This document shows positions 1-12,298 of a stretch of 32,000 nucleotides of DNA, piece after piece (positions within the stretch are counted from its first letter, which is position 1; the number at the start of each line of letters is the position of its first letter). Both the position numbers and the translations under genes were made by a program. The DNA comes from Fibrobacter succinogenes subsp. succinogenes S85 (GTDB lineage: Bacteria; Fibrobacterota; Fibrobacteria; Fibrobacterales; Fibrobacteraceae). Location: positions 540,001-572,000 of the forward strand of contig NC_017448.1 of the NCBI RefSeq assembly GCF_000146505.1, written 5' to 3'. The notes beneath the pieces were generated by a model. The model did not search any database, was not told the origin of the DNA, and saw nothing but the letters and a program-made list of their open reading frames with translations.

Positions 1-1199
1 ACATCGGTTGTAGAACGTCAACGAAAGCCCGCAGGATCGCTAAAGCTGTTTTAAGCGCAGCCTTGGAAGGGAATAGTGAAGGCAAGCCGTTCATTTTCCC
101 CAACATCGTCTTCAAGTACTCACGAGCTATCAATGGTACAGAATCCTCCCCCAACTATGACATTTTTCAGATGGCCTTGAAGGGGACTGCGAGCAGAATG
201 ATTCCAACATATTTCAACTGCGATGCGCCTTTCAACAGGAATGCGAATCCGAACAAAATTGGAATTATGGGTTGCCGAACTCGCGTTGTCGCTGACATAC
301 ATGGTAATACCACAGGTTTAAATAGGGGGAATATCGCCTGTGTCACGACAAATCTAGTACGGCTAGCAATTGACTCAAATCATGACTTTCAGGTATTTCT
401 CAAAAAAATCGGTACGCTTTTTGAGGAATGCAAGGAACTGCTACTTCATCGTTTTGCAACGTTATGCAAAGGAACCTCCCCCATTTTCGCTATTGAGAAG
501 GGCCTATACCTAGATTCGGAAAAAGGACGTGAGGTGGCGCTTATGCATGGGACGCTTTCCATTGGCTTTATCGGTCTGTGGGACGCTCTTTCGGAACTGC
601 TTGACACAGACTTTTCTGATGTAGACAATCTTCGTATGCATCATGGAAAAGCCCTAGCAGTACTTCAGGTGATGCGGCAAAAAGTGGATTCGTTTATAGA
701 GCAGAGCCATATGAACTTTTCGCTGTTGGCCAGTGCAGCGGAGGCAACGACCGGCATCTTTGCAGATCGTGATTTCAAGGAATACGGCATTCAATGCAAG
801 TCTGCGGCGAAGGGTTTCTACACAAATTCCTTCCACATTCCCGTTGACACGTCAATCCGACTTTTCGAAAAAATCCAACTAGAGGCTCCTTTCCACAAAT
901 TATGTAATGGAGGCTGCATTAGCTATGTGGAACTAGACGAACAGCCCTGCTACAATGTCGGAGCAATACAGAAGGTCGTGGAATTCGCCATGAAAAACAA
1001 CTGTAACTACTTCGGCATTAATTTCCCGCTAGACCAGTGCAACGCATGCGGTCATTTCGGAAGGATCGGCGATACGTGTAGTTCTTGCGGTTCCTCAGAC
1101 ATTTTGCGTTTGCGAAGGGTTTCCGGCTACCTTTCGGAAAAACGAGCATTTACGAAAGGGAAAAAGCGGGAACTGAACCTACGAAAAGCCTCTTTTTAG
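1..1199 (+). CDS. nrdD: Anaerobic (class III) ribonucleoside-triphosphate reductase, C-terminal portion. The 5' end lies outside the window.
   Basis: The frame of the listed ORF (63..1199) stays open back to position 3 with no stop, so the TTG at 63 is not the real start. Motifs seen: MGCRTRV (active-site Cys region), GRGN-type NRGNIACVTTNLVRLA, a C-terminal Zn-site CNACGH...CSSCG, and the glycyl-radical motif RRVSGYLS close to the C-terminus. Confidence 0.8.
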   Translation, partial: IGCRTSTKARRIAKAVLSAALEGNSEGKPFIFPNIVFKYSRAINGTESSPNYDIFQMALKGTASRMIPTYFNCDAPFNRNANPNKIGIMGCRTRVVADIHGNTTGLNRGNIACVTTNLVRLAIDSNHDFQVFLKKIGTLFEECKELLLHRFATLCKGTSPIFAIEKGLYLDSEKGREVALMHGTLSIGFIGLWDALSELLDTDFSDVDNLRMHHGKALAVLQVMRQKVDSFIEQSHMNFSLLASAAEATTGIFADRDFKEYGIQCKSAAKGFYTNSFHIPVDTSIRLFEKIQLEAPFHKLCNGGCISYVELDEQPCYNVGAIQKVVEFAMKNNCNYFGINFPLDQCNACGHFGRIGDTCSSCGSSDILRLRRVSGYLSEKRAFTKGKKRELNLRKASF

Positions 1200-1297
1200 A
1201 GTTCTTTCATTTTTTTCAAAAAATCGTACAAAAGCTTGGAAAATGCCCCATAATACGGATAGAAAATCAACCGACCATTTGGTCAAAGGATTCCTTG

Positions 1298-1900
1298 ATG
1301 AGACCGAAAGAGTTTATTGACATGTTCCCTTACGGATACACCCGCCTACGCAACTTGAACGGCAGTGCAGCCCTAAGACTTGAAACAAAGTGTACAAACG
1401 CTTACGTATATGTAAAAAAAATACACCGCAGAATGCCGGAAATCAACCAGGATATCGTAGATGACATTCAGTTAGAATGCGACAATGGAGTCATCATAGA
1501 TTGGTTCAACGACAACGCTTGCCGCTATTTCATCATAATGAGAAAGCATGACGAACTGCTCGCTTACAAGATTGTGCTGAACGCATTCTTTCAAAAAGAG
1601 ACCTTTGAAATAATAGGCTATTTCTTTGAGAATGAACACGAGAACCATCGCAAGAGAGTATACAACGAGCGCTATCTGAAAAATGTTTCACCAGATGCCT
1701 TGATAACGGAAACAGACTTTACGAATGAGCGATACGACATCATCTTTCCCGATGATGCATTAACCCACTGCAGGAGACTAGGCAATACCATTGCCATGAG
1801 CTCCATCTGCTCAACTGAGTCATGCAGTCAAAACCACAGTGATTTAAACATCCACAACAACGAATCCTTGGAGGATAACAGTGAAAGCGACATTGAGTAA
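1298..1900 (+). CDS. Hypothetical protein with a Ser/Asp/Glu-rich acidic C-terminal tail
   Basis: This is the in-frame ATG (MRPKEF...) downstream of the nrdD stop, with AAAGGA about 8 nt upstream. The longer listed ORF start (1085) overlaps nrdD and is unlikely. There is no CxxxCxxC, so it is not NrdG. The 3' end overlaps the GTG start of the kinase by 20 nt. I recognise no family. Confidence 0.4.
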   Translation: MRPKEFIDMFPYGYTRLRNLNGSAALRLETKCTNAYVYVKKIHRRMPEINQDIVDDIQLECDNGVIIDWFNDNACRYFIIMRKHDELLAYKIVLNAFFQKETFEIIGYFFENEHENHRKRVYNERYLKNVSPDALITETDFTNERYDIIFPDDALTHCRRLGNTIAMSSICSTESCSQNHSDLNIHNNESLEDNSESDIE

Positions 1901-3146
1901 AACTGCCCAAAGCATTGTTCCCGATCGGAACCTCCCCGTGTCCTTGGTAGCCAAGCCCGGACACCTCCTGCATACGGAAAATGGTCAATCAATCGTATTG
2001 GGGGATCAAATTGCAGGAGGAGGAGAAGGACATATTTTCAAGACCAACTCGCCTAGCTATGTGGCCAAGGTCTATATGCCTGAAAAAACAACGACACACA
2101 AGCAGGCAAAAATTCAGAAATTGATTCAAAAGGGGATTGATTTTCCTGGCATCAGCCTGCCTAAAGCGCTGCTCTACAACTCAAAGGATGAATTCGTGGG
2201 ATACATAATGAAAAAGGCGGAGGGAGAAAAGGTTCGTAGTCTTTACCTGAAACCGCTTTTTTTGAAGAAGTTCCCAAACTGGAAAAAGCGTGATTTGGTC
2301 GAACTCTGCATTACTATCCTAAAAAAGATTGGCTACTTGCACAAGAACGGAATCATTCTCGGTGATATCAACCCCGACAATATTCTTGTCAAGTCGCCAA
2401 AGGAAGTTTATTTCGTTGACTGCGACTCTTATCAAGTTGATGGCTATCCTTGTCCAGTCGGCACCATCCCGTTCACGCCTCCCGAACTACAAAACAAGGG
2501 GCATTATAACAGTTACCTGCGCACTATAGGTAACGAAAACTTTGCTGTAGCGGTGCTGCTGTTTTCGTTGATGGTTACAGGGCAAATGCCCTATAACCAG
2601 AAGGATGGGGAAAGCGCCCAGCAAAACATTATCGATATGAATTTTTCGTATCCTCTCGGCGAAGCTTCTAACAAGAAGACTCCTGCCGGGCAGTGGAGAT
2701 TTCTATAGAGTCATCTTCCAAGGTTCTTGAAGGATGCATTCTACAACACGTTCAACAAAGGCGGTACGTATTCCACTGAAAGAACACGGTTAAATTCATA
2801 CGACTGGTTCAAGAAATTCAGCGAGTACTTAAGGCTACTTGATTCCGGAAAGTACGGTGAGCAGGATGAAATGTCTGAACAGGTCTATCCGACTCGCTTC
2901 AAGAAGCAGAGGGGTGTTACCTATGTCAAGTGCCATCAATGTGGGGAAGATACCGATGTGAATATCATAAGCAAATATGGTATTTGCATGGAGTGCCTGC
3001 GCAAGAATAGGCTTAGTCGCTACCAGAGATCGTCTGCGCCACAGTATAAGTCTGGATATCAGGGGACATTTAGCCAGCCAGCTCGGGTTCGAACAAGCCA
3101 GAATCCCTTAGCTTCGGTTTGGGAAATACTCAACTGGTTCGTCTAA
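1881..3146 (+). pseudogene. Ser/Thr protein kinase (TerY-P-triad type) with a C-terminal zinc ribbon, interrupted by one in-frame TAG at 2706..2708
   Basis: ORFs 1881..2708 and 2727..3146 are in the same frame and are separated only by a TAG (reads ...QWRFL*SHLPRFLKDAFYNTF...). Kinase motifs: Gly-rich loop GGGEGHIF, VAKV lysine, catalytic loop GDINPDNILV, DFG-equivalent VDCDS, and APE-like PFTPPE. The downstream piece carries CHQCG...CMEC (CxxC-N17-CxxC). Confidence 0.65.
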
Positions 3147-3264
3147 TTACAAGGAGGCAAAATAAAAATCATACAAAGAAGCTTGTCAAAAACCATAATA
3201 CTATCGGAAGTCGATTATAGAGCTTCCTCTAACAATAAACAACAATCAACTCAAAGGATATACT

Positions 3265-3948
3265 ATGAACAGAAATCTGCTCAGTATTGAAGATCTCGAA
3301 AACAATCCCTCCAGCCGTGTACCCGTGTGCCTCGTGTTGGATACCAGTGGTTCCATGGAGGGCGATTCCATCAATGAATTGAATGAGGGCGTGCGTCTCT
3401 TTTACGATGCCGTGCGCAGCGATGAGACCGCCCTGTATGCCGCAGAGATTTCCGTGGTGACGTTCGGTGGCCATGCCTCGTGCCAAGCGGGCTTTAGCAC
3501 ACTTGAACACCAGCCCGATGCACCCCAGTTCTACGCCGATGGCGGTACACCCATGGGCGAGGCAATGAACATGGCGCTGGATATGCTTGAAAAAAGGAAG
3601 AGCGAATACAAGGCCAGTGGCGTAGACTATTACCAGCCGTGGATTGTGCTCATGACTGATGGGATGCCCAATGGCAGCCAGGCGGAGCTCTCCCGCTCTA
3701 TCCAACGCACTTGCGACATGATTAATGATCGCAAGCTGACCATTTTCCCCATCGGCATCGGTGAGGACGCCGACATGGATGTGCTTGCCAGGTTCTCCCC
3801 GAAGCGTAGCCCGCTCAAGTTGCAGGGTTTGAACTTCAAGGAGTTCTTCGCCTGGCTCAGCAAGAGCGTGTCCAAGGTTTCCCAGTCTACGCCGGGCGAC
3901 AAGGTACAGCTGGACGTGGACGGCATCAAGGGTTGGGCGGAGCTGTAG
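3265..3948 (+). CDS. von Willebrand factor A (vWA) domain protein, TerY-like
   Basis: MIDAS motif DTSGSM near the N-terminus, later GGTPMGEAM and LMTDGMPNG, about 227 aa, typical of TerY-type vWA proteins. The stop (3946-3948) lies 1 nt before the ATG of the next gene. Confidence 0.85.
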   Translation: MNRNLLSIEDLENNPSSRVPVCLVLDTSGSMEGDSINELNEGVRLFYDAVRSDETALYAAEISVVTFGGHASCQAGFSTLEHQPDAPQFYADGGTPMGEAMNMALDMLEKRKSEYKASGVDYYQPWIVLMTDGMPNGSQAELSRSIQRTCDMINDRKLTIFPIGIGEDADMDVLARFSPKRSPLKLQGLNFKEFFAWLSKSVSKVSQSTPGDKVQLDVDGIKGWAEL

Positions 3949-3949
3949 C

Positions 3950-4951
3950 ATGAATTGGGTTACAATCCAATGCGCAGTGCGGGGCCGAGGTCACGTGAGT
4001 TCCGGTACTCCCTGCCAGGACAAGACCTTCTCTATCGTTAAGGACGCGTGTTCCGTATGCGCCCTTGCCGATGGAGCGGGTTCCGCGAGCCATTCGCACT
4101 TTGGTGCCGAAGCCGTGACGCAAGCGATTTGCAACTACATGGCAGAAAACTTTGACCTCATTATTAACGAAGATGGGGCAGCCGTGAAGAGGAACATTCT
4201 TGCTGTTATAGGTGAACGCCTCGAGACGCTCTGTAGTGAGAAGGGGTGTGCTATCAGGGATCTTGCCTCGACGCTCCTATTCGTTGCCGAGAAGGGCGGC
4301 AAATTCATCATCTGCCATATTGGGGATGGTGTCATCGGCTACGTCAAGGAAGGCAAGGTGCTGGTCGCATCGCAGCCTGAAAACGGCGAGTTTGCGAATA
4401 CCACGGTGTTCACGACATCGAGTAACGCTATCGCGAGCATGCGGCTCATCAAGGGAGACCTGAAGCAAATTTCGGGATTCATCCTGATGTCCGATGGTAC
4501 GGAAACCAGTTTTTACAACAAGCGGAACAAGGCTCTTTCTCCTTCCCTTGCCCGCTTGACAAGGCTGGCTTCCGTTTGCACCCCCGATTACATGTCGCAG
4601 AAACTGAACTGCACCTTCGAAGACCTTGTAAAGCAGCAGACTTCCGATGACTGTAGCATCGTACTGATGTCACGGTCTCCAGGTAGTCGAGGCTATATGG
4701 ATTTTTCCGAGAAGGACAAATGTGAATTCTTGGGCCTAGCCAATACACGGGTTTCCCGCAAGAGGCTCAGGAGTTTCGACAAAGCTCTGACGGTGCTACA
4801 ATCCTGGGGAACCTATCGAGCAATCAAGCGCAGACTCCACCTGCGTGGCAAAAAGCTTGACAGGATTCTCAAGAGACTTGACAACGCAAATATTCTTGAA
4901 ACCCGTGAGGACGGACGTTACAAATCCGCCCTCCGGGCTTTTTTTGTTTAG
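3950..4951 (+). CDS. PP2C-family serine/threonine phosphatase (PP2C_2-like) with a basic C-terminal extension of about 90 aa
   Basis: N-terminus RGRGHVSSGTPCQDK...ALADGAGSASHSHFGAE, then HIGDGVIGY and LMSDGT, the pattern of bacterial PP2C_2 phosphatases that accompany vWA/kinase genes. It is translationally coupled to the vWA gene. Confidence 0.8.
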   Translation: MNWVTIQCAVRGRGHVSSGTPCQDKTFSIVKDACSVCALADGAGSASHSHFGAEAVTQAICNYMAENFDLIINEDGAAVKRNILAVIGERLETLCSEKGCAIRDLASTLLFVAEKGGKFIICHIGDGVIGYVKEGKVLVASQPENGEFANTTVFTTSSNAIASMRLIKGDLKQISGFILMSDGTETSFYNKRNKALSPSLARLTRLASVCTPDYMSQKLNCTFEDLVKQQTSDDCSIVLMSRSPGSRGYMDFSEKDKCEFLGLANTRVSRKRLRSFDKALTVLQSWGTYRAIKRRLHLRGKKLDRILKRLDNANILETREDGRYKSALRAFFV

Positions 4952-4991
4952 AAAAACAACTCTTCCGACCAAAAAAGGTATATTTGTCCCT

Positions 4992-5678
4992 ATGAGATTT
5001 AGGGATTATATAGATACGGCACAAAGGCATCTAATAAGTTGCGAGGCAATTTGCAGGACAATCGAATGGGATAAATGTAGTAACGAAGAAAAAAATGAAA
5101 TTTTAAAAGATTTGTTTTATCTCACTGGATACATATTAGAAGCGCTTACTATTTACACAGTTTATAGCAGAGGTCATTTCAATCCCAATAAAGACATTAC
5201 CGAACTAGATATTAAGTTTACCAAAGATACACATGTTGACTACTACAATACAAGAGAGATTCATCCAAATAAAAATGACCCTAAAGACAAATTTTCTATT
5301 TCATGTCGAACACCAAAAAATGCGGAATCATATGAAACTTTTAACAAAAATTTAGAAGAACTAAATAAATTAATACGTGAAACAACTATTTATCCAATAC
5401 AAAGCCATAAGTTTTTTGCAATCATTCAGAACGTCCTCAATGATTCAAATAAAGGACTAATATTCTCAAGCGAAAATATACCTCTTTTCTCCAATATTAA
5501 AGTTTCAAACAATGAACGAGAAAAAAAAATCTTAACGCTAATTATGTCTTGGGATTCAAGCCTCAGGTATTCCACAAATCAATGGAATAAAATCAAAGAC
5601 ATTCTGACCAAAGAAAATATAGAATACATAATTATTTTATGTAAAATGATAAAAAAACTTGTATACAAAGTGGGGTAA
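4992..5678 (+). CDS. Hypothetical helical protein (weak, non-catalytic HEPN-like pattern), first gene of the AT-rich cassette
   Basis: ATG at 4992 (MRFRDYIDTAQRHLISCEAI...). The listed ORF start at 4845 overlaps the PP2C gene. Helix pattern A..HL...E.....Y.LTGY.LEAL, then a QSHKF and a late SLRY. I could not find an Rx4-6H motif. The sequence is AT-rich and Lys/Asn/Ile-rich. The stop lies 3 nt before the next ATG. Confidence 0.5.
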   Translation: MRFRDYIDTAQRHLISCEAICRTIEWDKCSNEEKNEILKDLFYLTGYILEALTIYTVYSRGHFNPNKDITELDIKFTKDTHVDYYNTREIHPNKNDPKDKFSISCRTPKNAESYETFNKNLEELNKLIRETTIYPIQSHKFFAIIQNVLNDSNKGLIFSSENIPLFSNIKVSNNEREKKILTLIMSWDSSLRYSTNQWNKIKDILTKENIEYIIILCKMIKKLVYKVG

Positions 5679-5681
5679 TCC

Positions 5682-8600
5682 ATGACATTCATTTCAAAAT
5701 ATGCAATTGCTTTACAAGCATTTCTTCATTCCCTTATCAATGAAGAACGTGGAGAAAAATTTAAAGTTTTCATCCGAGCAGGCTTTCAAATAGATGTGTT
5801 CGTTTTTTTATTCAATCACCAACATCATCAAGATATAGAAAAAAAATTTGACAACTTTTGCAAAGCAAATAAAGACCTAGCAGACCTTGATCCTATTGCA
5901 GAAAATGATGAAATACAAATCTTTTTCAACATTTATCCGATTTCAGAATTAGAAGACTCTTTTTATTCTAGTATTGTTAACAAACCTAATTGTATTGATT
6001 ACGGTCCACGTTATAGATTCGACTCTTTTTATAGCACATCAAAAATTGACCTCACTAAAGAAGATCAAACTAAGATTCCTGTTATCACATTTTACAGTCA
6101 CAAGGGAGGTGTTGGCAGAACCACAGCAATGGCTTCATACGCATTGCATTTGGCAAAATTAGAAAAGAACGTTGCCATTATTGATTGTGATTTAGAAGCA
6201 CCTGGTTATCTCAATTTCTTTAATCTATCAGAAAACGATGAACACGAAGAACTAAAAGAAGGGAAAAAAAATGGTCTTGTTGAGTTTTTGTGCGACTCCC
6301 AATTTTTGGGAAAAAATATCAAAATAGAAGATTACATATTAAATGTCGGAGCACGAAATCGAAACAGCAACTATCATCCAGCATTAGACCGCATTTGGCT
6401 CATCCCGGCAGGAAATCTTAACGAAGGTGTTACAGAAGATAACGCTTTAGAAAGTCCAAATAGACAAGACTATATAGAAGGTTTGGCTAAATTGAATTTA
6501 GGCAACACCCAAAATGTCATCAAAAGTTTCAACACGCTATTTGAACATTTAAAAACCTTAAATGTCGATGCTATTCTAATTGATTCCAGAACAGGATTTA
6601 ATGACATCTTCGGAACTGCAACATTACATTTATCTTCATGCGTTGTAGGATTCTTTGGATTAAGCAGACAAAACGAACCGGGCTTAATAAATCTTTTAGC
6701 CAAACATGTTCAAAACGAAAATTTATTCAAACTAATCCTAGCATATTCAATTTTACCAAAAAATTACAAAGAAGACAACATTTTAATGGAAGCCTATAAT
6801 CGAATGGAAACTTTCATTATGAATGTTTATGACCAAAAAAATGCCCCGACAAGAATTCCAATTCATCGAAATGACGATTTAGAAAGAATTGGGATAGGCG
6901 ATCTAGCCGCAGATAAAAAATTCATTGATATGAACACATCAACAGATAGGAACATTCAATTTTCTGACTATACTCAGCTTTTTAATGAGATAGACAGAAA
7001 TTGTTTCCCAGAAGGTCTGCTAAGCAGTATATTTGGTCTAATGGCTGATAATCTTAAATCAAACAAAGACAATAGGTACAATTCATATGATTTAAGAAAC
7101 ATAATCCTTCAACATTTAAAAAAAGTTTTAGACGAGTCTATAAATAGTGCAGAAGAAGACCGCATAAATGAAAATACTTTTTTCTATAGACAATGCATGA
7201 ACGATTTATTTGACAAAGATAAGTTCATTATTTGCGGACGCAAGGGAACAGGCAAAACACATTTGTGCAAATCTCTCCAAAATCAGCAAATATCAAATAA
7301 AATTAAGAGTAACTCTCGACAGAAAGACAATGCTGAATTTATTTATGCCAATGCTTTGCCCGATAATAAGGATCAGGAAGTTGCGCTTTCCATAATAATT
7401 AGGTCAGCCTTCAACAAAGACGTTGATTATCTAAATCTTTGGAGAATATATACATGGAGCAAACTATTTCTTGATAACGGTAACGAAAGTCTCTCCGAGA
7501 TCCGATCCGTTGTAAAGCAACAAAGTCCATTAGCCAATAAATATTCCTCTATTAATGGAGAATTAGATACTTTAGAATTTATGGAACTCGTAAATGATAT
7601 AGACAGTCTTCTACACATTGTGGAAGACTTATATAGATTTGACGAGGAACTAGCCAAAAACAACAAAAAATTACTTATTCTCTACGACAAACTAGACTTG
7701 TATATTCGGCCCTCCTATTGGGAAAAAGCAATATCGTCCCTATTTGAATATTGGACTCATGCAGGATCAAATCTCCATAATATCGCTCCAAAAATATTCA
7801 TTCGCACAGATTTATTTTGGCAATCAATACAAGGGTCCATTACAGAACTATCTCCGAACAACATCATCAGCACAGAATGGACCATTGAAGAAATTTTTGG
7901 TTATTTATTTAAGCTTATTTTTTCAGACCAAAGAGCCAGCTCGGCTTATTGGGATATAGCAAAAAATTTCGGCATAGATCCGCAATACATAGCAGATACT
8001 GAAAAAGCTTTTAAAACAAACAACAATCAACTCAAGGTTCTTTCACAAGCAGAAATGGAACCTCTTTTACAAGTTTTCTTTGGTAAAGACACTCAAGGTC
8101 TGGGAAAGCCCTGGGACTACTTCAAAAAAGAATTATCAAATGCAGACTACACAACCAACTTACAACTATTCATCAATATTTTATACCACAATGCTATAGA
8201 CAAATCTTTAGCAATAGCAAAATCAAATATAACCGAAATAATAAGTCCAGCGATTTATACATCAACAGAGGTTAGAGCTTATGCTGCAAAAATGTTATTT
8301 GAAAAGCTTGCCGAAGACCAATTCTGTAAGAACCTAGCAAATTTTCAACATGCAGTATTCTTTGCAGATAACGGATTATACCGCTATAAATCATTAGATA
8401 CAAATAAATTCGATAATTTGATAAATACAGTTTGTGAACAGAACAAATTTTTAGATTTCGGAAGTACTAAAGAAAATTTGATAAACGCCATATTTAGCAA
8501 TGGCATTATGACCATCAATAATACTACAAAAGGTGATATTTTCGTATTCGCTCCATTATATTGGTACCCATGGGGACTTCAAGAAGTCAGTTTTGAAAGC

Positions 8601-8828
8601 AAGAACAAAACTATCAAGAAGAATGATGAGTATTTTGAGTATAAAGATGAGTTAGCTAGCAATAATGCAGATGCAGCAAAAAAAGCCATTATTGCCAGCA
8701 ATGCTGCATTAATGGCTTTGGGACTCGGCAGTATATTCGGTGGACCAGTCGTTGCATCAGTCGCTTCTGCTGCAGTTATAGCGACAAGTATCGCAAAAAT
8801 GATATCCAAGATAAATAGCAAAAAATAA
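5682..8828 (+). CDS. Large multidomain NTPase: unknown N-domain + ParA/MinD-like ATPase with a KGGVGR P-loop + second P-loop NTPase module + hydrophobic small-residue-rich C-terminal tail
   Basis: Uninterrupted 1048-codon ORF.
- aa 141-148 KGGVGRTT (nt 6102-6125), a deviant Walker A with Arg in place of the P-loop Lys
- VAIIDCDLEAPG (Walker A'-like)
- AILIDSRTGFND (MinD DSPAG-like switch II)
- second Walker A GRKGTGKT (nt 7236-7259) with LLILYDKLD (Walker B-like) and IFIRTDLF
- C-terminal AIIASNAALMALGLGSIFGGPVVASVASAAVIATSIAKMISKINSKK. Confidence 0.85.
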   Translation: MTFISKYAIALQAFLHSLINEERGEKFKVFIRAGFQIDVFVFLFNHQHHQDIEKKFDNFCKANKDLADLDPIAENDEIQIFFNIYPISELEDSFYSSIVNKPNCIDYGPRYRFDSFYSTSKIDLTKEDQTKIPVITFYSHKGGVGRTTAMASYALHLAKLEKNVAIIDCDLEAPGYLNFFNLSENDEHEELKEGKKNGLVEFLCDSQFLGKNIKIEDYILNVGARNRNSNYHPALDRIWLIPAGNLNEGVTEDNALESPNRQDYIEGLAKLNLGNTQNVIKSFNTLFEHLKTLNVDAILIDSRTGFNDIFGTATLHLSSCVVGFFGLSRQNEPGLINLLAKHVQNENLFKLILAYSILPKNYKEDNILMEAYNRMETFIMNVYDQKNAPTRIPIHRNDDLERIGIGDLAADKKFIDMNTSTDRNIQFSDYTQLFNEIDRNCFPEGLLSSIFGLMADNLKSNKDNRYNSYDLRNIILQHLKKVLDESINSAEEDRINENTFFYRQCMNDLFDKDKFIICGRKGTGKTHLCKSLQNQQISNKIKSNSRQKDNAEFIYANALPDNKDQEVALSIIIRSAFNKDVDYLNLWRIYTWSKLFLDNGNESLSEIRSVVKQQSPLANKYSSINGELDTLEFMELVNDIDSLLHIVEDLYRFDEELAKNNKKLLILYDKLDLYIRPSYWEKAISSLFEYWTHAGSNLHNIAPKIFIRTDLFWQSIQGSITELSPNNIISTEWTIEEIFGYLFKLIFSDQRASSAYWDIAKNFGIDPQYIADTEKAFKTNNNQLKVLSQAEMEPLLQVFFGKDTQGLGKPWDYFKKELSNADYTTNLQLFINILYHNAIDKSLAIAKSNITEIISPAIYTSTEVRAYAAKMLFEKLAEDQFCKNLANFQHAVFFADNGLYRYKSLDTNKFDNLINTVCEQNKFLDFGSTKENLINAIFSNGIMTINNTTKGDIFVFAPLYWYPWGLQEVSFESKNKTIKKNDEYFEYKDELASNNADAAKKAIIASNAALMALGLGSIFGGPVVASVASAAVIATSIAKMISKINSKK

Positions 8829-8885
8829 ATTATTCCAAGTTCATCTTTAAAGAACTAAGTCTTTTTAGAATTACCTAAAGAGATT

Positions 8886-9761
8886 CTAAAATTTCAGCAA
8901 TTTTCTAGGGATAAACAACTTCGGCAGGCGCATCCAAAACCGGGGCGAAAGCGAAATCACCTTCGGAATCAGGCGGAGCGCCTTGAGCTTGCTTTGGGCA
9001 GCAACGGCAGAAAACCAGTTTGCCTTCCAGCAGCGGACCGCTTTTTTATACAACGGGTGCTTGCTGTAGTTTTCCGCCAAGATACGCAAAATTTCGCTAA
9101 AAATGCGGTTATTGTCCACATGCAGATTGTCGCCGTGTTCCCGGTAATAGCAGCACACAAAATCCTTTGAAACCGGTTGCGGGCCATAGTGGTAAAGAAT
9201 GCTCAGATAAAGCGGATAATCTTCAAAATAATACCGCTTATCGTAACCGCCGATAGCAAGAATCTTCTCGCGATCAAACATTTCAGCACAGCCATGCAAT
9301 GCCTTCTGCCCCAGGAAGGATTCTTCAAAAGAAATCTGAGGGACACTCCGCAGGTAGCGAACGTCCATTTCGGAGCCAATCTTATCGCCTTCGTATAGCG
9401 AAACAATCTGCCCAAAACACGATGCGGCTTCCGGGTGCGCATCTAGAAAATCGCTCTGCTTTTTAAGGCGATCCGGTGGCATGATGTCATCAGAAGAAAA
9501 CGAACAGACATAGCGGCCACGCGCAAGAGCAAGAGCTTCTATAAGCGTCGGTACAACGCCCTTATTCGGTCGATGGATGTACGTAAATTTCAGTTCGTCG
9601 GCCAGACGCTTTAGAATTTCTGGGGTACGGTCCTTGCTTCCATCGTCAATGACAATCAGCTCAAAGTCAACTCCAGTCTGTTCCATCACGGAACGCACAG
9701 CAGCTTCGACATACAGCTCATGGTTATAGCTAGGCAAGATTACAGAAACTTTTGGAGTCAT
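8886..9761 (-). CDS. Glycosyltransferase family 2
   Basis: N-terminus VSVILPSYNHELYVEAAVRSVMEQT...ELIVIDDGSKD plus a SSDD (DxD-like) motif. There is a 4-nt overlap (ATGA) with the upstream flippase gene. Confidence 0.85.
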   Translation of the reverse strand: MTPKVSVILPSYNHELYVEAAVRSVMEQTGVDFELIVIDDGSKDRTPEILKRLADELKFTYIHRPNKGVVPTLIEALALARGRYVCSFSSDDIMPPDRLKKQSDFLDAHPEAASCFGQIVSLYEGDKIGSEMDVRYLRSVPQISFEESFLGQKALHGCAEMFDREKILAIGGYDKRYYFEDYPLYLSILYHYGPQPVSKDFVCCYYREHGDNLHVDNNRIFSEILRILAENYSKHPLYKKAVRCWKANWFSAVAAQSKLKALRLIPKVISLSPRFWMRLPKLFIPRKLLKF

Positions 9762-11062
9762 TTTTCACCCCACTTTAAGCGGCTGACGAGAACAAATGAA
9801 GCAACAAGCGTAAGGAAATTTTCAAGAGCATACGCCATCATCGGGCCATTAAACTCATAAAGTTTTACAAAAGCATAAGTCGATAGCGCCAAGACAAGTT
9901 CCGAACAAATTTCAAGCGTCAGGAATTTCTTTGTTTCACGGCGCACAATCAGCACAAGCCCAAGCGCCCAACCGCCCACGCGGAAAAAGTCGCCAAGTAG
10001 CTGTACCGGGAGATAATCGGCGGCCCCCGCATACGATGAAGAAAGCATCACCGCAACAAGGAGCGAACGGCCAAAGTAAAGAATCAATACAGCCACTAGC
10101 GCAAGCAACATCGTCTTAAGGAATATCGGGCGGAACATTCCCCAGAATTCCGATTTCGTCATTTTCGCAGAGACTCGTGGCAAGATTATAACGCCGAGGA
10201 TGGCCGAGAAAAACGCCGTCAAGAAATCCGATATTTTCCAGATTCCCTGCCAAATGCCGGCAGCATCCCACCCTAGATTATCGCCAACAGTCTGTCGCAT
10301 AAACGTGAGCACCACAGGCGACAAGAGCATAGGGACAATTCCCATCAACGCATACGAGAGCCACGGCGCACGGATGTCAAGCGCGCTCTTGCGGATTTCA
10401 CGCAGGCTAAAGCCAGCACGTGACGCTATTTGCGCCGCAAAAATTCCTGCAACTACAGACTGCGTTGCCACAATCGAAAGTACGCTCAGGCGCCCCGAAT
10501 AAAGGAAAAACGCGACCCACAGCATTTGCCATAGCGAAGACACCATGTTGATGAGTGCCCAACGGCGGTAATGCCCAAGCCCGTTCATCACGGATGCAGT
10601 AATCGTAATGATGTTTGTCGCAAAGACGCCCGGCAAGGCAAAGATAATCGCCGCCTGCACAAGACGCGGGTGGATGCCCGGGAAAAACGATTCGAGCGGG
10701 ACCGTAAAGCAGAGAACGAGAGCTACGGCAAACGTGGCAATGCTTGCAAAAGTGGTCAAGCGAAAACCGCCACGCCACACACCCTTCAGTTGTTCCAAGT
10801 TGTCCTTATTCTGAGCACTAAGGCTCACCCAGCCATTCTGGAGCGCAAGCGAAGACGTTGCCTGTCCCATTGTCATAAAGTTCATGAACTGACCAACGCA
10901 CGCAAAAGCACTCGGCGGCAAGAACATGGCCAGAAGCTTATTCACCACAAAAACACGTAAGGCGTTGAGGAACGTCACCATTCCAGAACCCATAAACGCC
11001 TTCCAAAAATTCACAGGCTGAGGATTTGTCTTATTTTCCCTAGAACTCATTAATGGCTCCAA
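9758..11062 (-). CDS. Wzx-type (MOP superfamily) polysaccharide/lipid-linked oligosaccharide flippase, WzxE-like
   Basis: 434-aa polytopic membrane protein. The N-terminal pattern (KLLAMFLPPSAFACVGQFMNF...) resembles WzxE/O-antigen translocases. It sits between a DegT aminotransferase and a GT2 gene and overlaps both. Confidence 0.65.
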   Translation of the reverse strand: MEPLMSSRENKTNPQPVNFWKAFMGSGMVTFLNALRVFVVNKLLAMFLPPSAFACVGQFMNFMTMGQATSSLALQNGWVSLSAQNKDNLEQLKGVWRGGFRLTTFASIATFAVALVLCFTVPLESFFPGIHPRLVQAAIIFALPGVFATNIITITASVMNGLGHYRRWALINMVSSLWQMLWVAFFLYSGRLSVLSIVATQSVVAGIFAAQIASRAGFSLREIRKSALDIRAPWLSYALMGIVPMLLSPVVLTFMRQTVGDNLGWDAAGIWQGIWKISDFLTAFFSAILGVIILPRVSAKMTKSEFWGMFRPIFLKTMLLALVAVLILYFGRSLLVAVMLSSSYAGAADYLPVQLLGDFFRVGGWALGLVLIVRRETKKFLTLEICSELVLALSTYAFVKLYEFNGPMMAYALENFLTLVASFVLVSRLKWGEK

Positions 11063-12158
11063 TCACTTCGGAGACTTCGTCGTCGGTCATCACGGGACTC
11101 ATGGGAATGCTGAGTATCGTCTTTGCCATCGCTTCTGCAATCGGGTACTCACCGCTAAATTCGTGGGCATAAGCCTCTTGCAAATGCGGCGGAATCGGAT
11201 AATGAATAAGCGTCCCTATTCCGTGGGCAGTCAAGAACTTCTGCATTTCGTCGCGAGCTTCTTCGCTCTTTAAGCGAATTACAAACACATGGTAAACATG
11301 TTCCGAAGGCGTTGCAGGAAGTTCGGGCAGAATGACTTTGTCATTTTTAATATCACGGCAATAGCGAGCTGCAATTTCCCGGCGTCGATCATTGCATTCA
11401 TCCAAATGCGGAAGCTTTGCAAGCAAAAGAGCCGCCTGCATTTCGTCCAGGCGAGAGTTCACGCCCTTGTACATGTTCACATATTTTTGTTCGGAGCCAT
11501 AATTGCCCAGGGAACGGACGGCATTTGCAATATCCGTATCGTTCGTCAGGACCATTCCCGCATCGCCAAGCGCCCCCAGATTCTTTGTCGGGTAAAAGCT
11601 GTAAGCGGCAGCCGAGCCAAATGAACCTGCACAACGACCATCGCCAAGTCGCGCCCCATGAGCTTGCGCACTGTCTTCAAACAGCAGCAAGCCATGTTCA
11701 TTGGCAAACTCGCATATTTCATCCATCGCACAGAGGCGCCCGTACAAATGAACTACAAGAATTCCACGAGTGCGCGCCCCACAGGCATCCTTCAAGCGTT
11801 TCGGATCCATGTCATAGCTATTTTCGGCAGGTTCCACAAGCACCGGCTTGAGCCCAACAGCGCTAACAGCAAGGACGGTCGCGATATACGTATTCGACGG
11901 TACCAGGATTTCGTCGCCAGCCCTAAGCCTTCCAAGTTCCATCGAAGCACGCAACATGAGCGTAAGCGCATCAAGCCCATTCCCCACGCCCACTGCGTAT
12001 TTCACACCACAATATTCGGCAAAAGCTCGTTCAAATTGTTCGCCATAATGTCCACGAATGTACCAGCCCGACTCCACGACGGAACTCGCGGCCTCCTTCA
12101 AGGATTCCATGTACGGGGCGTTTAAAAGCTTGAGGTCGAGAAAGGGAACTTTTGCCAT
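11040..12158 (-). CDS. DegT/DnrJ/EryC1/StrS-family PLP-dependent sugar aminotransferase (WecE-like)
   Basis: N-terminus VPFLDLK...ESGWYIRG..GEQFERAFAEYCGVKYAVGVGNGLDALTL, then FEDSAQAHGA and the SFYPTKNLGALGDAG (PLP-Lys) motif. Confidence 0.85.
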   Translation of the reverse strand: MAKVPFLDLKLLNAPYMESLKEAASSVVESGWYIRGHYGEQFERAFAEYCGVKYAVGVGNGLDALTLMLRASMELGRLRAGDEILVPSNTYIATVLAVSAVGLKPVLVEPAENSYDMDPKRLKDACGARTRGILVVHLYGRLCAMDEICEFANEHGLLLFEDSAQAHGARLGDGRCAGSFGSAAAYSFYPTKNLGALGDAGMVLTNDTDIANAVRSLGNYGSEQKYVNMYKGVNSRLDEMQAALLLAKLPHLDECNDRRREIAARYCRDIKNDKVILPELPATPSEHVYHVFVIRLKSEEARDEMQKFLTAHGIGTLIHYPIPPHLQEAYAHEFSGEYPIAEAMAKTILSIPMSPVMTDDEVSEVIGAINEF

Positions 12159-12225: not shown

Positions 12226-12298
12226 TGAGCTACGAAGGGCTCGAACCTTCGACCCACGCCTTAAAAGGGCGTTGCTCTACCAACTGAGCTAGTAGCCC
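12226..12298 (-). tRNA. tRNA-Lys (anticodon UUU)
   Basis: The reverse complement reads GGGCTACTAGCTCAGTTGGTAGAGCAACGCCCTTTTAAGGCGTGGGTCGAAGGTTCGAGCCCTTCGTAGCTCA. It has a 7-bp acceptor stem (one G-U), a D-loop AGCTCAGTTGGTAGAGC, an anticodon stem ACGCC/GGCGT with loop CTTTTAA, and a T-arm GAAGG-TTCGAGC-CCTTC. No CCA is encoded. Confidence 0.9.

Follow-up and report, generated by a model that had tools for sequence, protein, structure and literature searches.

What kind of system is encoded by two unusually AT-rich genes that stand directly behind a conserved set of signalling genes in the chromosome of Fibrobacter succinogenes subsp. succinogenes S85, and is this system a new one? The two genes, here called the cassette, lie within a stretch of 32,000 nucleotides (nt) of contig NC_017448.1 (positions 540,001 to 572,000), which we refer to as the window; coordinates are window positions unless preceded by the handle of a related locus (L001 and the like). 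A sequence-only reading of the window had proposed the cassette as an undescribed conflict or defence system whose architecture could be matched to no named system. Our results do not sustain this last point, since the cassette matches the PADLOC candidate system PDC-M28 and two curated NCBIfam families, and a dyad of a HEPN protein and a ParA/Soj-like ATPase had been proposed in 2013. The cassette is a fused, HEPN-divergent and tail-bearing variant of PDC-M28. It probably has a role in conflict or defence, and we give about an even chance to the more specific reading that it is a self-contained, mobile conflict module, most likely of the abortive-infection type directed against phages, in the fused B-C form of PDC-M28.

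The cassette is a fused form of PDC-M28

The product of gene 2, which shows 100% identity to F. succinogenes S85 protein FSU_0496, matches two PADLOC models one after the other, PDC-M28B (1.8e-22, amino acids (aa) 126-390) and PDC-M28C (3.3e-12, aa 480-832). The NCBIfam model 'KGGVGR-motif variant AAA ATPase' (AAA_KGGVGR) scores 126 bits against a cutoff of 90 over aa 132-340, and the model 'P-loop ATPase, Sll1717 family' (NF047389) reaches 72.9 bits over aa 490-748, just below its cutoff of 75. A textbook split PDC-M28 locus is present on a Calothrix plasmid, where the A, B and C components are proteins of 138, 464 and 503 aa with E-values of 5.6e-14, 2e-59 and 1.4e-81, respectively, and where the C protein scores 95.9 bits against ATPase_Sll1717. 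The window has the same modules in the same order as this system, namely a HEPN-like small protein, an N-domain with a KGGVGR ATPase and a Sll1717-type NTPase; the B and C components are both found in gene 2, and the A component is recognized through the profile of the gene-1 family only. It differs from the split system in that B and C form one open reading frame (ORF) and not separate genes, leaving two genes where the PADLOC definition calls for three, in that its A protein has diverged beyond the reach of the PADLOC model, and in that a Fibrobacter-specific hydrophobic tail has been added. PDC systems are unpublished candidates distributed with PADLOC, some of which have been tested, and the three-gene rule of PADLOC may miss the fused form.

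The fused form belongs to a large family. More than 3,500 matches to the whole gene-2 protein were found among the candidates scored, and the KGGVGR domain has 6,341 representatives of 50%-identity clusters at E <=1e-3 and 1,125 at E <=1e-10. Among the best 150 such representatives 117 also carry the Sll1717-type half, and therefore the fused architecture is the common one and the split three-gene form is a minority among the closest relatives. The features of the cassette are collected in Table 1.

Table 1. Positions of the genes, domains and motifs of the cassette in the window.
Feature	Position	Strand	Remark
Gene 1, 228-aa protein with putative divergent HEPN fold, PDC-M28A-like, predicted effector/toxin	4992..5678	+	
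Helix-1 motif A10..H13..C17 of gene 1	5019..5042	+	H13 and C17 nearly invariant (28- and 105-sequence alignments)
Helix-2 motif Y43-L-x-G46-Y47-x-x-E50 of gene 1	5118..5141	+	Y43, G46, Y47 invariant; E50 nearly invariant
His139 of gene 1, candidate 'alternative histidine'	5406..5408	+	Invariant in family alignments
Motif W187-x4-R192-Y193 of gene 1, with putative HEPN-motif Arg	5550..5570	+	W187, R192, Y193 invariant
Gene 2, 1048-aa dual P-loop protein, PDC-M28B and PDC-M28C fused	5682..8828	+	FSU_0496
N-terminal alpha/beta domain (aa 1-119)	5682..6038	+	No Pfam or PDB sequence match
Conserved GPRYRFDS junction behind N-domain	6003-6026	+	
ParA/MinD-type (SIMIBI) ATPase domain	6057..7013	+	Variant Walker A
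First Walker A, KGGVGRTT (aa 141-148)	6102-6125	+	
DCDLE	6183-6197	+	Within IIDCDLE (aa 166-172)
First Walker B, LIDSRTG (aa 299-305)	6576-6596	+	
Second NTPase module, Sll1717-family, STAND-like, with helical region and winged-helix-like end (aa 465-970)	7074..8591	+	
Second Walker A, GRKGTGKT (aa 519-526)	7236-7259	+	
Second Walker B, LLILYDKLD (aa 664-672)	7671-7697	+	
Lineage-specific C-terminal tail: charged linker, Gly/Ala/Ser-rich hydrophobic helical hairpin, basic amphipathic end	8592..8825	+	
Hydrophobic helical hairpin of tail	8703-8804	+	

Pairing, composition and distribution

The layout of the cassette is that described by the sequence-only reading in sizes, coordinates and spacing: two co-directional ORFs are separated by 3 nt (TAA-TCC-ATG). 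The longest ORF of gene 1 begins at a GTG at 4845 and the protein called by NCBI has 244 aa, while the Met at 4992 is nearly invariant in the alignment of the gene-1 family. The low GC content that had been estimated by hand for this region is also borne out by measurement, with 29.4% in gene 1 and 33.6% in gene 2 (33% for the cassette) versus 47.5% at positions 1-4951 and 49.8% at 8886-32000. These results support the cassette as a discrete, compositionally foreign two-gene operon. The same bias is seen throughout the family, where the GC content of the pair lies below that of its flanks in 65 of 65 loci (32.8% versus 42.3%, p = 2e-12).

Whether the small upstream gene accompanies gene 2 in other genomes had been named as a check of the proposed system, and the pairing is close to complete. 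Searching one genome per species gave 79 loci, in 74 of which a homologue of gene 1 lies directly 5' of gene 2 on the same strand; in the remaining five, gene 2 lies at the start of the contig or at most about 570 nt from it. In 70 of 75 pairs the two genes are no more than 15 nt apart, and 20 pairs overlap by 4 nt. Pairwise identities of gene 1 and gene 2 are correlated (r = 0.79), a value reached in 0 of 999 permutations of a Mantel test. Together, these data show that the two genes are translationally coupled and co-inherited. Chance does not explain the features of the cassette, as both genes belong to conserved families that occur together in these 74 loci. Members of the family are known from Fibrobacterota, many Bacteroidota, Pseudomonadota, Desulfobacterota, Campylobacterota, Chloroflexota and one Lachnospiraceae genome, with at least six phyla represented, and some genomes hold several copies of the cassette.

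Two sequence elements stand around the beginning of the operon. The octamer TATATTTG at 4979-4986, 5 nt 5' of the gene-1 ATG, resembles the Bacteroidota -7 promoter element TAnnTTTG; if used as a promoter, it would imply a nearly leaderless transcript that starts within the 40-nt gap behind the PP2C gene. A short GCCC-TCC-GGGC hairpin with a T-run (4928-4945) overlaps the end of the PP2C gene; a terminator scan did not call this hairpin, nor an intrinsic terminator behind that gene.

The small protein probably has a divergent HEPN-like fold

Gene 1 had been described as an all-helical protein with a weak HEPN-like pattern, and both parts of this description agree with our results. Its AlphaFold2 model is mostly helical, with a predicted local distance difference test (pLDDT) value of 90 and a predicted template modelling (pTM) score of 0.88. 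Alone, the protein has no match among Pfam, PADLOC or NCBIfam models, with E up to 1 accepted for the latter two. The gene-1 family, which was assembled from the loci and then from database matches, has a mean identity of about 21-25%; 14 of its 105 members match the PDC-M28A model, and one member matches the Pfam HEPN family PF05168 at E 0.0016, a family that leaves the window protein unmatched. The profile of this family aligns with the Calothrix PDC-M28A protein with an hhalign probability of 94% (E 1.3e-7) and with every conserved motif in register. This Calothrix protein is annotated as 'HEPN domain protein' and scores 23.9 bits against PF05168, whose gathering score is 22. No match was obtained with either the family profile or the Calothrix protein against PDB sequences. 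In a Foldseek search of the PDB with the gene-1 model, HEPN toxins are the sole recurring class with TMt above 0.5 (0.53-0.57), at E-values above 2 that are not significant. We treat gene 1 as a divergent HEPN-fold protein because of the alignment of its family profile with the Calothrix protein, the structural model and the conserved motifs; this assignment is moderately supported, and the protein may be catalytic.

The conserved residues of the family are informative in this respect. E50 occupies the position of the conserved Asp/Glu in helix 2, an acidic residue that has been described for HEPN domains (PMC3710099). The W187-x4-R192-Y193 motif aligns to FHPERRY of the Calothrix HEPN protein, and R192 is invariant, but no His follows it at a distance of 4-6 residues, so that the canonical Rx4-6H motif is absent. 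An invariant His, H139, is found instead upstream of R192 within an insert between helices 2 and 3. That an invariant set of His, Glu, His and Arg persists in a family with a mean identity of about 25% suggests, on the alignments, an active or binding site.

Some Fibrobacter relatives have a much longer HEPN-like gene of 426-609 aa (L001 6249-7985, L002 6712-7992, L090 8235-9986, L088 2334-4163). In L001 and L002, a heptad-like, charged coiled-coil insert of about 170-300 aa is located between helix 1 (A..RH..C) and helix 2 (YYLxGYxxE). A tandem duplication of the HEPN domain, which was considered for the long variants, is rejected on account of this insert, and Pfam returned nothing above noise on them.

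The large protein combines two P-loop modules with a variable tail

The motifs that the sequence-only reading had quoted from gene 2 are all found where it placed them, and each of the modules it described, an unrecognized N-domain, a ParA/MinD-type ATPase, a second independent P-loop NTPase and a hydrophobic tail rich in Gly, Ala and Ser, is recovered by our analysis. The AlphaFold2 model (pLDDT 81) breaks at aa 120-124, 445-464 and 971, which delimits domains of aa 1-119, 125-444 and 465-970 and a low-confidence tail. The N-domain has no Pfam match, and its profile gives only chance matches against PDB sequences. It is found across the whole family, also in the split Calothrix B protein, with which it can be aligned; it falls within the PDC-M28B model and has no invariant residue but Met1.

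The second domain belongs to the ParA/MinD class. Besides AAA_KGGVGR, three Pfam models match aa 134-280 just above their gathering scores (ParA 28.9/27.1, CbiA 28.9/25.4 and AAA_31 27.7/27 bits), and a Foldseek search with the whole model of gene 2 returned only ParA/MinD-class structures (Soj, MinD, BcsQ, FlhG and ParA), the best of which, Soj and MinD, reach E 1.6e-7 and TMt up to 0.74. The functional equivalog models all remain below their cutoffs: minD scores 27 bits of 213, ParA_partition 24 of 180, BcsQ 21 of 158 and eps_fam 17.6 of 108. The deviant Walker A of this class, KGGxxK[ST] in its canonical form, is altered here. The first Walker A reads KGGxGR[ST]T in 293 of 297 relatives, and a Lys at the Arg position is seen in none; Lys141, the signature residue, is retained, Arg146 takes the place of the canonical P-loop Lys, and the DxD and Walker B acids are preserved. 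With this Arg-for-Lys substitution, the first module may act as a clamp that binds ATP and hydrolyses it slowly or not at all.

The second module keeps an ordinary P-loop. Its Walker A retains GK[ST] in about 282 of 297 relatives, and the G-K and the D..D of its Walker B are invariant. Near aa 500-590 there are weak Pfam matches to AAA_22 and to nSTAND3 (16.3 bits versus 27.2, E 0.008); NPHP3_N is matched at E 0.11. A profile of the C-terminal half found P-loop-level or chance matches only in the PDB, and no solved relative beyond the P-loop. In the model, a helical region is followed at aa 907-956 by a helix-helix-hairpin that resembles a winged helix, an arrangement which, if the model is right, would fit a STAND-like layout.

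The conserved core of gene 2 ends near residue 970. Beyond it, the window protein has a hydrophobic stretch (aa 1008-1041) with a maximal Kyte-Doolittle 19-residue mean of 1.89, and the tail is modelled with pLDDT of only 28-54. Tails were scored in the 183 relatives in which they are at least 19 residues long. A hydrophobic tail of the window type is found in 12 of these 183, all within the close Fibrobacter-type clade, and thus it cannot be a conserved effector. Most Bacteroidales relatives have a beta-rich tail of 80-150 aa, some carry repeats of small helical modules, and in about 100 relatives the tail is almost lacking. On these variable tails Pfam gave nothing above noise, with a weak CSD match (E 0.05) in one and hints of DUF5659 or IF2_N in another. 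A membrane tail was therefore rejected as a core feature of the system, being absent elsewhere or replaced by other small domains, and the 'sensor-NTPase plus membrane-tail' logic of the sequence-only reading does not hold for the family. MinD has a membrane-targeting C-terminal helix. By analogy, the Fibrobacter tail probably tethers the complex to the membrane as this helix does; it does not serve as a conserved killing device.

Genomic contexts of the family

The proposal of a defence-like context is supported by the prophages, plasmids and defence genes among which the family is found. In E. coli (L080 10001-13258, proteins of 153 and 928 aa), the pair stands between a lambdoid prophage integrase and icd; in Proteus, it lies within a lambdoid prophage; and in Acinetobacter, it is located terminally in a P2-like prophage, flanked by tail gene D and the integrase. 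The regions of Proteus and Acinetobacter are both entered in IMG/VR as proviruses, and this database also contains one metagenomic viral contig with both genes. On cyanobacterial plasmids the system adjoins type III (res) and type I (hsdR) restriction genes, and on a Pantoea plasmid it adjoins an integrase. The neighbours are not conserved, as 487 neighbouring ORFs fall into 406 clusters. The commonest is a WYL/WCX regulator (10 of 124 nearest neighbours); others include DruE of Druantia, GajB of Gabija, DRT, PsyrT, DpdJ, PDC-S01, PDC-M16A, AAA_14/DUF4143 and PIF1 and UvrD helicases. A housekeeping context, whose consistent presence had been named as evidence against a defence role, was found at none of the family loci.

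The WYL/WCX (BrxR/CapW-like) gene, of about 353 codons, occurs at L085 4579-5640 and 13 other loci (e.g. L010 4837-5919 and L005 11311-12405), and in Bacteroidales it often follows gene 2 directly and in the same orientation. In that clade it could act as a transcriptional regulator of the cassette. As a conserved third gene of the system it was rejected, since this recurrent downstream gene is present in only 14 loci. The KGGVGR domain is also seen in other company: on a Sinorhizobium plasmid (L095 3995-6199) it forms a fusion with a TIR domain, and on a Rhizobium plasmid (L084 4489-6866) it is part of a 624-aa protein whose gene follows one that is annotated as encoding an antitoxin of the MqsA family.

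The locus in Fibrobacter

In the window, the cassette is preceded by genes for NrdD, a protein kinase, a vWA protein and a PP2C phosphatase, and is followed on the opposite strand, in convergent orientation, by a family-2 glycosyltransferase and a DegT aminotransferase. The kinase/vWA/PP2C triad (1881-4951) is a neighbouring gene set outside the cassette. It is conserved beside the cassette in three related Fibrobacter genomes (L001, L002 and L008), with identities of 95-96% for vWA and 92-95% for PP2C (L001, L008), whereas the identity of the cassette to that of the window is 39%/61% in L001, 31%/46% in L002 and 40% in L008. In L008, the cassette is inverted and abuts the PP2C stop codon; UWB5 (L090) has the same layout, with the triad directly beside the cassette. 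In L088, two diverged cassettes stand in tandem at 2334-11089 (609 and 1023 aa, then 244 and 1022 aa) and there is no triad. From these comparisons (window 3265-8828 versus L001, L002 and L008), the site just behind the PP2C gene behaves as a cassette hotspot. PP2C is among only 3 of 124 nearest neighbours, all of them in Fibrobacter, and the triad is present in none of more than 70 loci outside Fibrobacter. Because the triad is absent outside Fibrobacter and from L088 as well, and because the cassette alleles turn over beside it, its association with the cassette is local and not a property of the family. Thus, the TerY-P-type triad noticed by the sequence-only reading is real and does adjoin the cassette, but its use as a defence-island context has to be restricted to a Fibrobacter-specific hotspot.

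Several other observations were made at this locus. The triad kinase of the window (1881-3146) has an in-frame TAG at 2706-2708 where L001 has a Trp (WRFL*SHLP versus WRFLWSHLP), and the kinase is one ORF of about 407-428 aa in L001, L002, L008 and L090. The S85 gene may be a pseudogene or depend on readthrough, or the stop may be a sequencing error. An ORF at 1085-1900, 5' of the kinase and with no Pfam match, has counterparts of 56-64% identity at the same position in L001, L002 and L008, and may belong to the Fibrobacter triad island as a further component; in UWB5, two genes for small GTPases are also present at that place (L090 2381-4142). The tandem cassettes of L088 adjoin a radical-SAM (NrdG-like) gene. 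The sole Rfam match of the window is a tRNA gene (12226-12298, minus strand, 68 bits) that stands between the DegT gene and a gene for an outer-membrane protein, at a distance of about 3.4 kb from the cassette.

Discussion

In this study, we find that the cassette of F. succinogenes S85 is not categorically new, since it is catalogued as the candidate PDC-M28 and was foreshadowed in 2013, when a dyad of a HEPN protein of the MAE_18760 family and a ParA/Soj-like ATPase was proposed as a toxin and its antitoxin (PMC3710099, Anantharaman et al. 2013). Like that dyad, the cassette has a small HEPN gene in an operon with a SIMIBI ATPase of the ParA/Soj type. It differs in that the MAE_18760 HEPN keeps Rx4-6H, which gene 1 does not have, and in that no second NTPase is mentioned in PMC3710099. 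Membership of gene 1 in the MAE_18760 family is unlikely, because Rx4-6H is absent and no NCBIfam match is obtained at E up to 1.

Other known systems resemble parts of the cassette. HEPN proteins of the AbiV and AF0298 type combine an Arg with an alternative His and an acid in helix 2 and are considered potentially catalytic (PMC3710099). Gene 1 is like them in keeping the motif Arg without the motif His and in having an insert with His139 and the helix-2 acid; however, no member of its family matches the PADLOC AbiV models, and AbiV works alone, without an NTPase partner. The type VII HEPN-MNT systems (HepT/MntA) also pair a small HEPN-fold protein with a nucleotide-using enzyme that controls it. 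Their toxins are those that gave the non-significant structural matches to gene 1, and PF05168 (HEPN-T) is the nearest Pfam family. Unlike in these systems, the partner here is a dual P-loop protein of about 1000 aa, there is no Rx4-6H(xY), and the HEPN gene comes first; moreover, Pfam and NCBIfam detect no nucleotidyltransferase domain in either cassette protein. DS-15 ('AAA1') is an experimentally validated anti-phage operon of E. coli that consists of a ParA/MinD-type ATPase and small proteins (Science 2026, PMC13092281), and its validation means that ATPases of the ParA/MinD class can serve in defence. Membership of the cassette in DS-15 is nevertheless rejected: the DS-15 ATPase is a plain 281-aa KGGVGK ParA that is similar to gene 2 only around Walker A, the partner of 221 aa shows no relationship to gene 1 (hhalign probability 0.2%), and the system has no second NTPase. 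The supplement of the same work on DefensePredictor lists large KGGVGR-motif proteins with log-odds of about 12 as 'putative novel defense genes' (PMC13092281), and one of these proteins shares 29% identity with gene 2 across 291 residues (E 5e-21). Finally, inactive MinD/ParA-like domains fused to AP-ATPase (STAND) proteins have been described in VMAP and peptide-processing conflict systems (PMC7159879, Kaur et al. 2020). The combination of an altered-site MinD/ParA-like domain with a STAND-type NTPase is shared with the cassette, a likeness drawn from their description only; those systems belong to actinobacteria and multicellular bacteria, have MoxR-vWA cores and use other effectors.

How would such a cassette work? 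We propose that the HEPN protein would be the effector, either as an RNA binder or, more specifically, as an RNase acting through Arg192, the alternative His139 and Glu50, as has been suggested for HEPN proteins of the AbiV/AF0298 type, and that the large protein would hold it inactive. A cue from infection would be read by the Sll1717/STAND-like module and, in some lineages, perhaps also by the C-terminal tail; the cue would cause a nucleotide-dependent rearrangement by ParA-like sandwich dimerization, oligomerization or both, and this rearrangement would free or activate a HEPN dimer, which would cleave RNA and arrest the infected cell. That the HEPN protein is the effector could prove right or wrong with similar ease, and the detailed switch with its two NTPases is doubtful. 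It is unlikely that the family represents a new class of immune switch in which an Arg-for-Lys ParA/MinD sandwich dimer and a STAND-like sensor NTPase on one polypeptide control a non-canonical HEPN RNase, either by nucleotide-dependent clamping or by modification of the Tyr in the RY motif in the manner of a bacterial tyrosine kinase (BY-kinase). Such modification of the invariant Tyr beside Arg192 is speculative; it would parallel the AMPylation of HEPN toxins by MNT, with another class of enzyme.

Several points weigh against an anti-phage module of this kind. Gene 1 by itself matches no HEPN or PDC-M28A model, it is without Rx4-6H, and the resemblance of its model to HEPN toxins falls short of significance. 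With Arg in place of Lys in its P-loop, the ParA-like domain may be unable to hydrolyse ATP, and the STAND assignment of the second module is weak, given the marginal nSTAND3 match and a Sll1717 score just below its cutoff. The correlated divergence of the two genes is expected for any two linked genes, and the enrichment of their neighbourhoods was counted without a formal background control. No real tblastn match to the Fibrobacter or the E. coli protein was present in 50,697 INPHARED phage records, and megablast of the E. coli version found none among complete RefSeq E. coli genomes. The published papers found contain no experiment on PDC-M28 or its fused form, PDC-M28 is not among the tested PDC systems, and a literature search on KGGVGR, PDC-M28 and Sll1717 returned no paper and no functional study.

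These points have to be considered together with the rival explanations. The first is that the pair is purely a toxin-antitoxin or addiction module in which the ATPase neutralizes a HEPN toxin and which stabilizes prophages, plasmids and islands, with no anti-phage role. This was the original proposal for the dyads of HEPN and ParA/Soj proteins (PMC3710099), and the tight coupling of the pair, its presence on prophages and plasmids, its low GC content and its patchy distribution are all compatible with it. However, a protein of 930-1100 aa with two NTPases and variable sensor-like tails exceeds what an antitoxin needs, the neighbours are mainly defence genes and WYL regulators, and a place beside the prophage integrase or attachment site is typical of defence cargo. 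We consider a pure addiction module improbable; it also overlaps the abortive-infection reading, because many toxin-antitoxin-like pairs prove to be abortive-infection systems.

A second rival, which follows the logic of the sequence-only reading, makes the large Fibrobacter protein itself the effector, with a tail hairpin that inserts into the membrane and damages it, and reduces the HEPN-like protein to a non-catalytic adaptor or sensor. The transmembrane-like hydrophobicity of the tail, its conservation within the Fibrobacter clade and the lack of a canonical Rx4-6H in gene 1 would agree with this, but the tail is confined to 12 of the 183 relatives scored while the rest of the system is conserved, it is modelled at very low confidence, and gene 1 keeps its invariant His/Glu/His/Arg set. 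The probability of such an arrangement is therefore small. Smaller still is that of a cassette serving as an output or accessory of the adjacent TerY-P-type triad and regulated by its phosphorylation cycle. This idea draws on the position of the triad beside the cassette in the window, L001, L002, L008 and L090, and on protein tyrosine kinases being part of the ParA/MinD family, as reflected in weak BY-kinase matches; it is opposed by the absence of the triad from all of the non-Fibrobacter loci and from L088, by the inversion of the cassette relative to the triad in L008, by the turnover of cassette alleles next to a triad that stays 92-96% identical, and by the in-frame stop in the triad kinase of the window. 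A housekeeping function of the ParA/MinD type (positioning, partition or BY-kinase-like regulation of the downstream polysaccharide genes) is very remote: the fold and family of the first NTPase domain, the glycosyltransferase and DegT genes downstream and the names 'BcsQ' or 'tyrosine-protein kinase family' given to relatives by some sources would suggest it, but these genes have a convergent orientation and do not accompany the cassette in a conserved way, the BY-kinase, MinD and ParA equivalog scores are far below their cutoffs, no ParB, MinE or centromere partner is present, and the contexts are prophages, plasmid islands and defence genes with a foreign composition in every one of the loci compared. 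In our ranking, no rival fits the family-wide data as well as a mobile, abortive-infection-type conflict module.

In summary, the locus holds a fused variant of PDC-M28 which, if functional, would represent a widespread uncharacterised defence family, often met with in Fibrobacter and in Bacteroidota of the rumen and gut and carried as prophage cargo in Enterobacterales and Acinetobacter. Rule-based finders probably miss the fused form with its divergent A gene, and therefore defence censuses of gut and rumen genomes may undercount the family. If the family is functional, the ParA/MinD switch, which is best known from chromosome partition and the placement of the division site, would join the regulators of immunity, and gene 1 would offer a non-canonical HEPN active site that is tractable for study. 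In Fibrobacter itself, the nrdD-proximal locus appears from the genomes compared to be a natural hotspot in which cassette alleles turn over beside a TerY-P-type triad.

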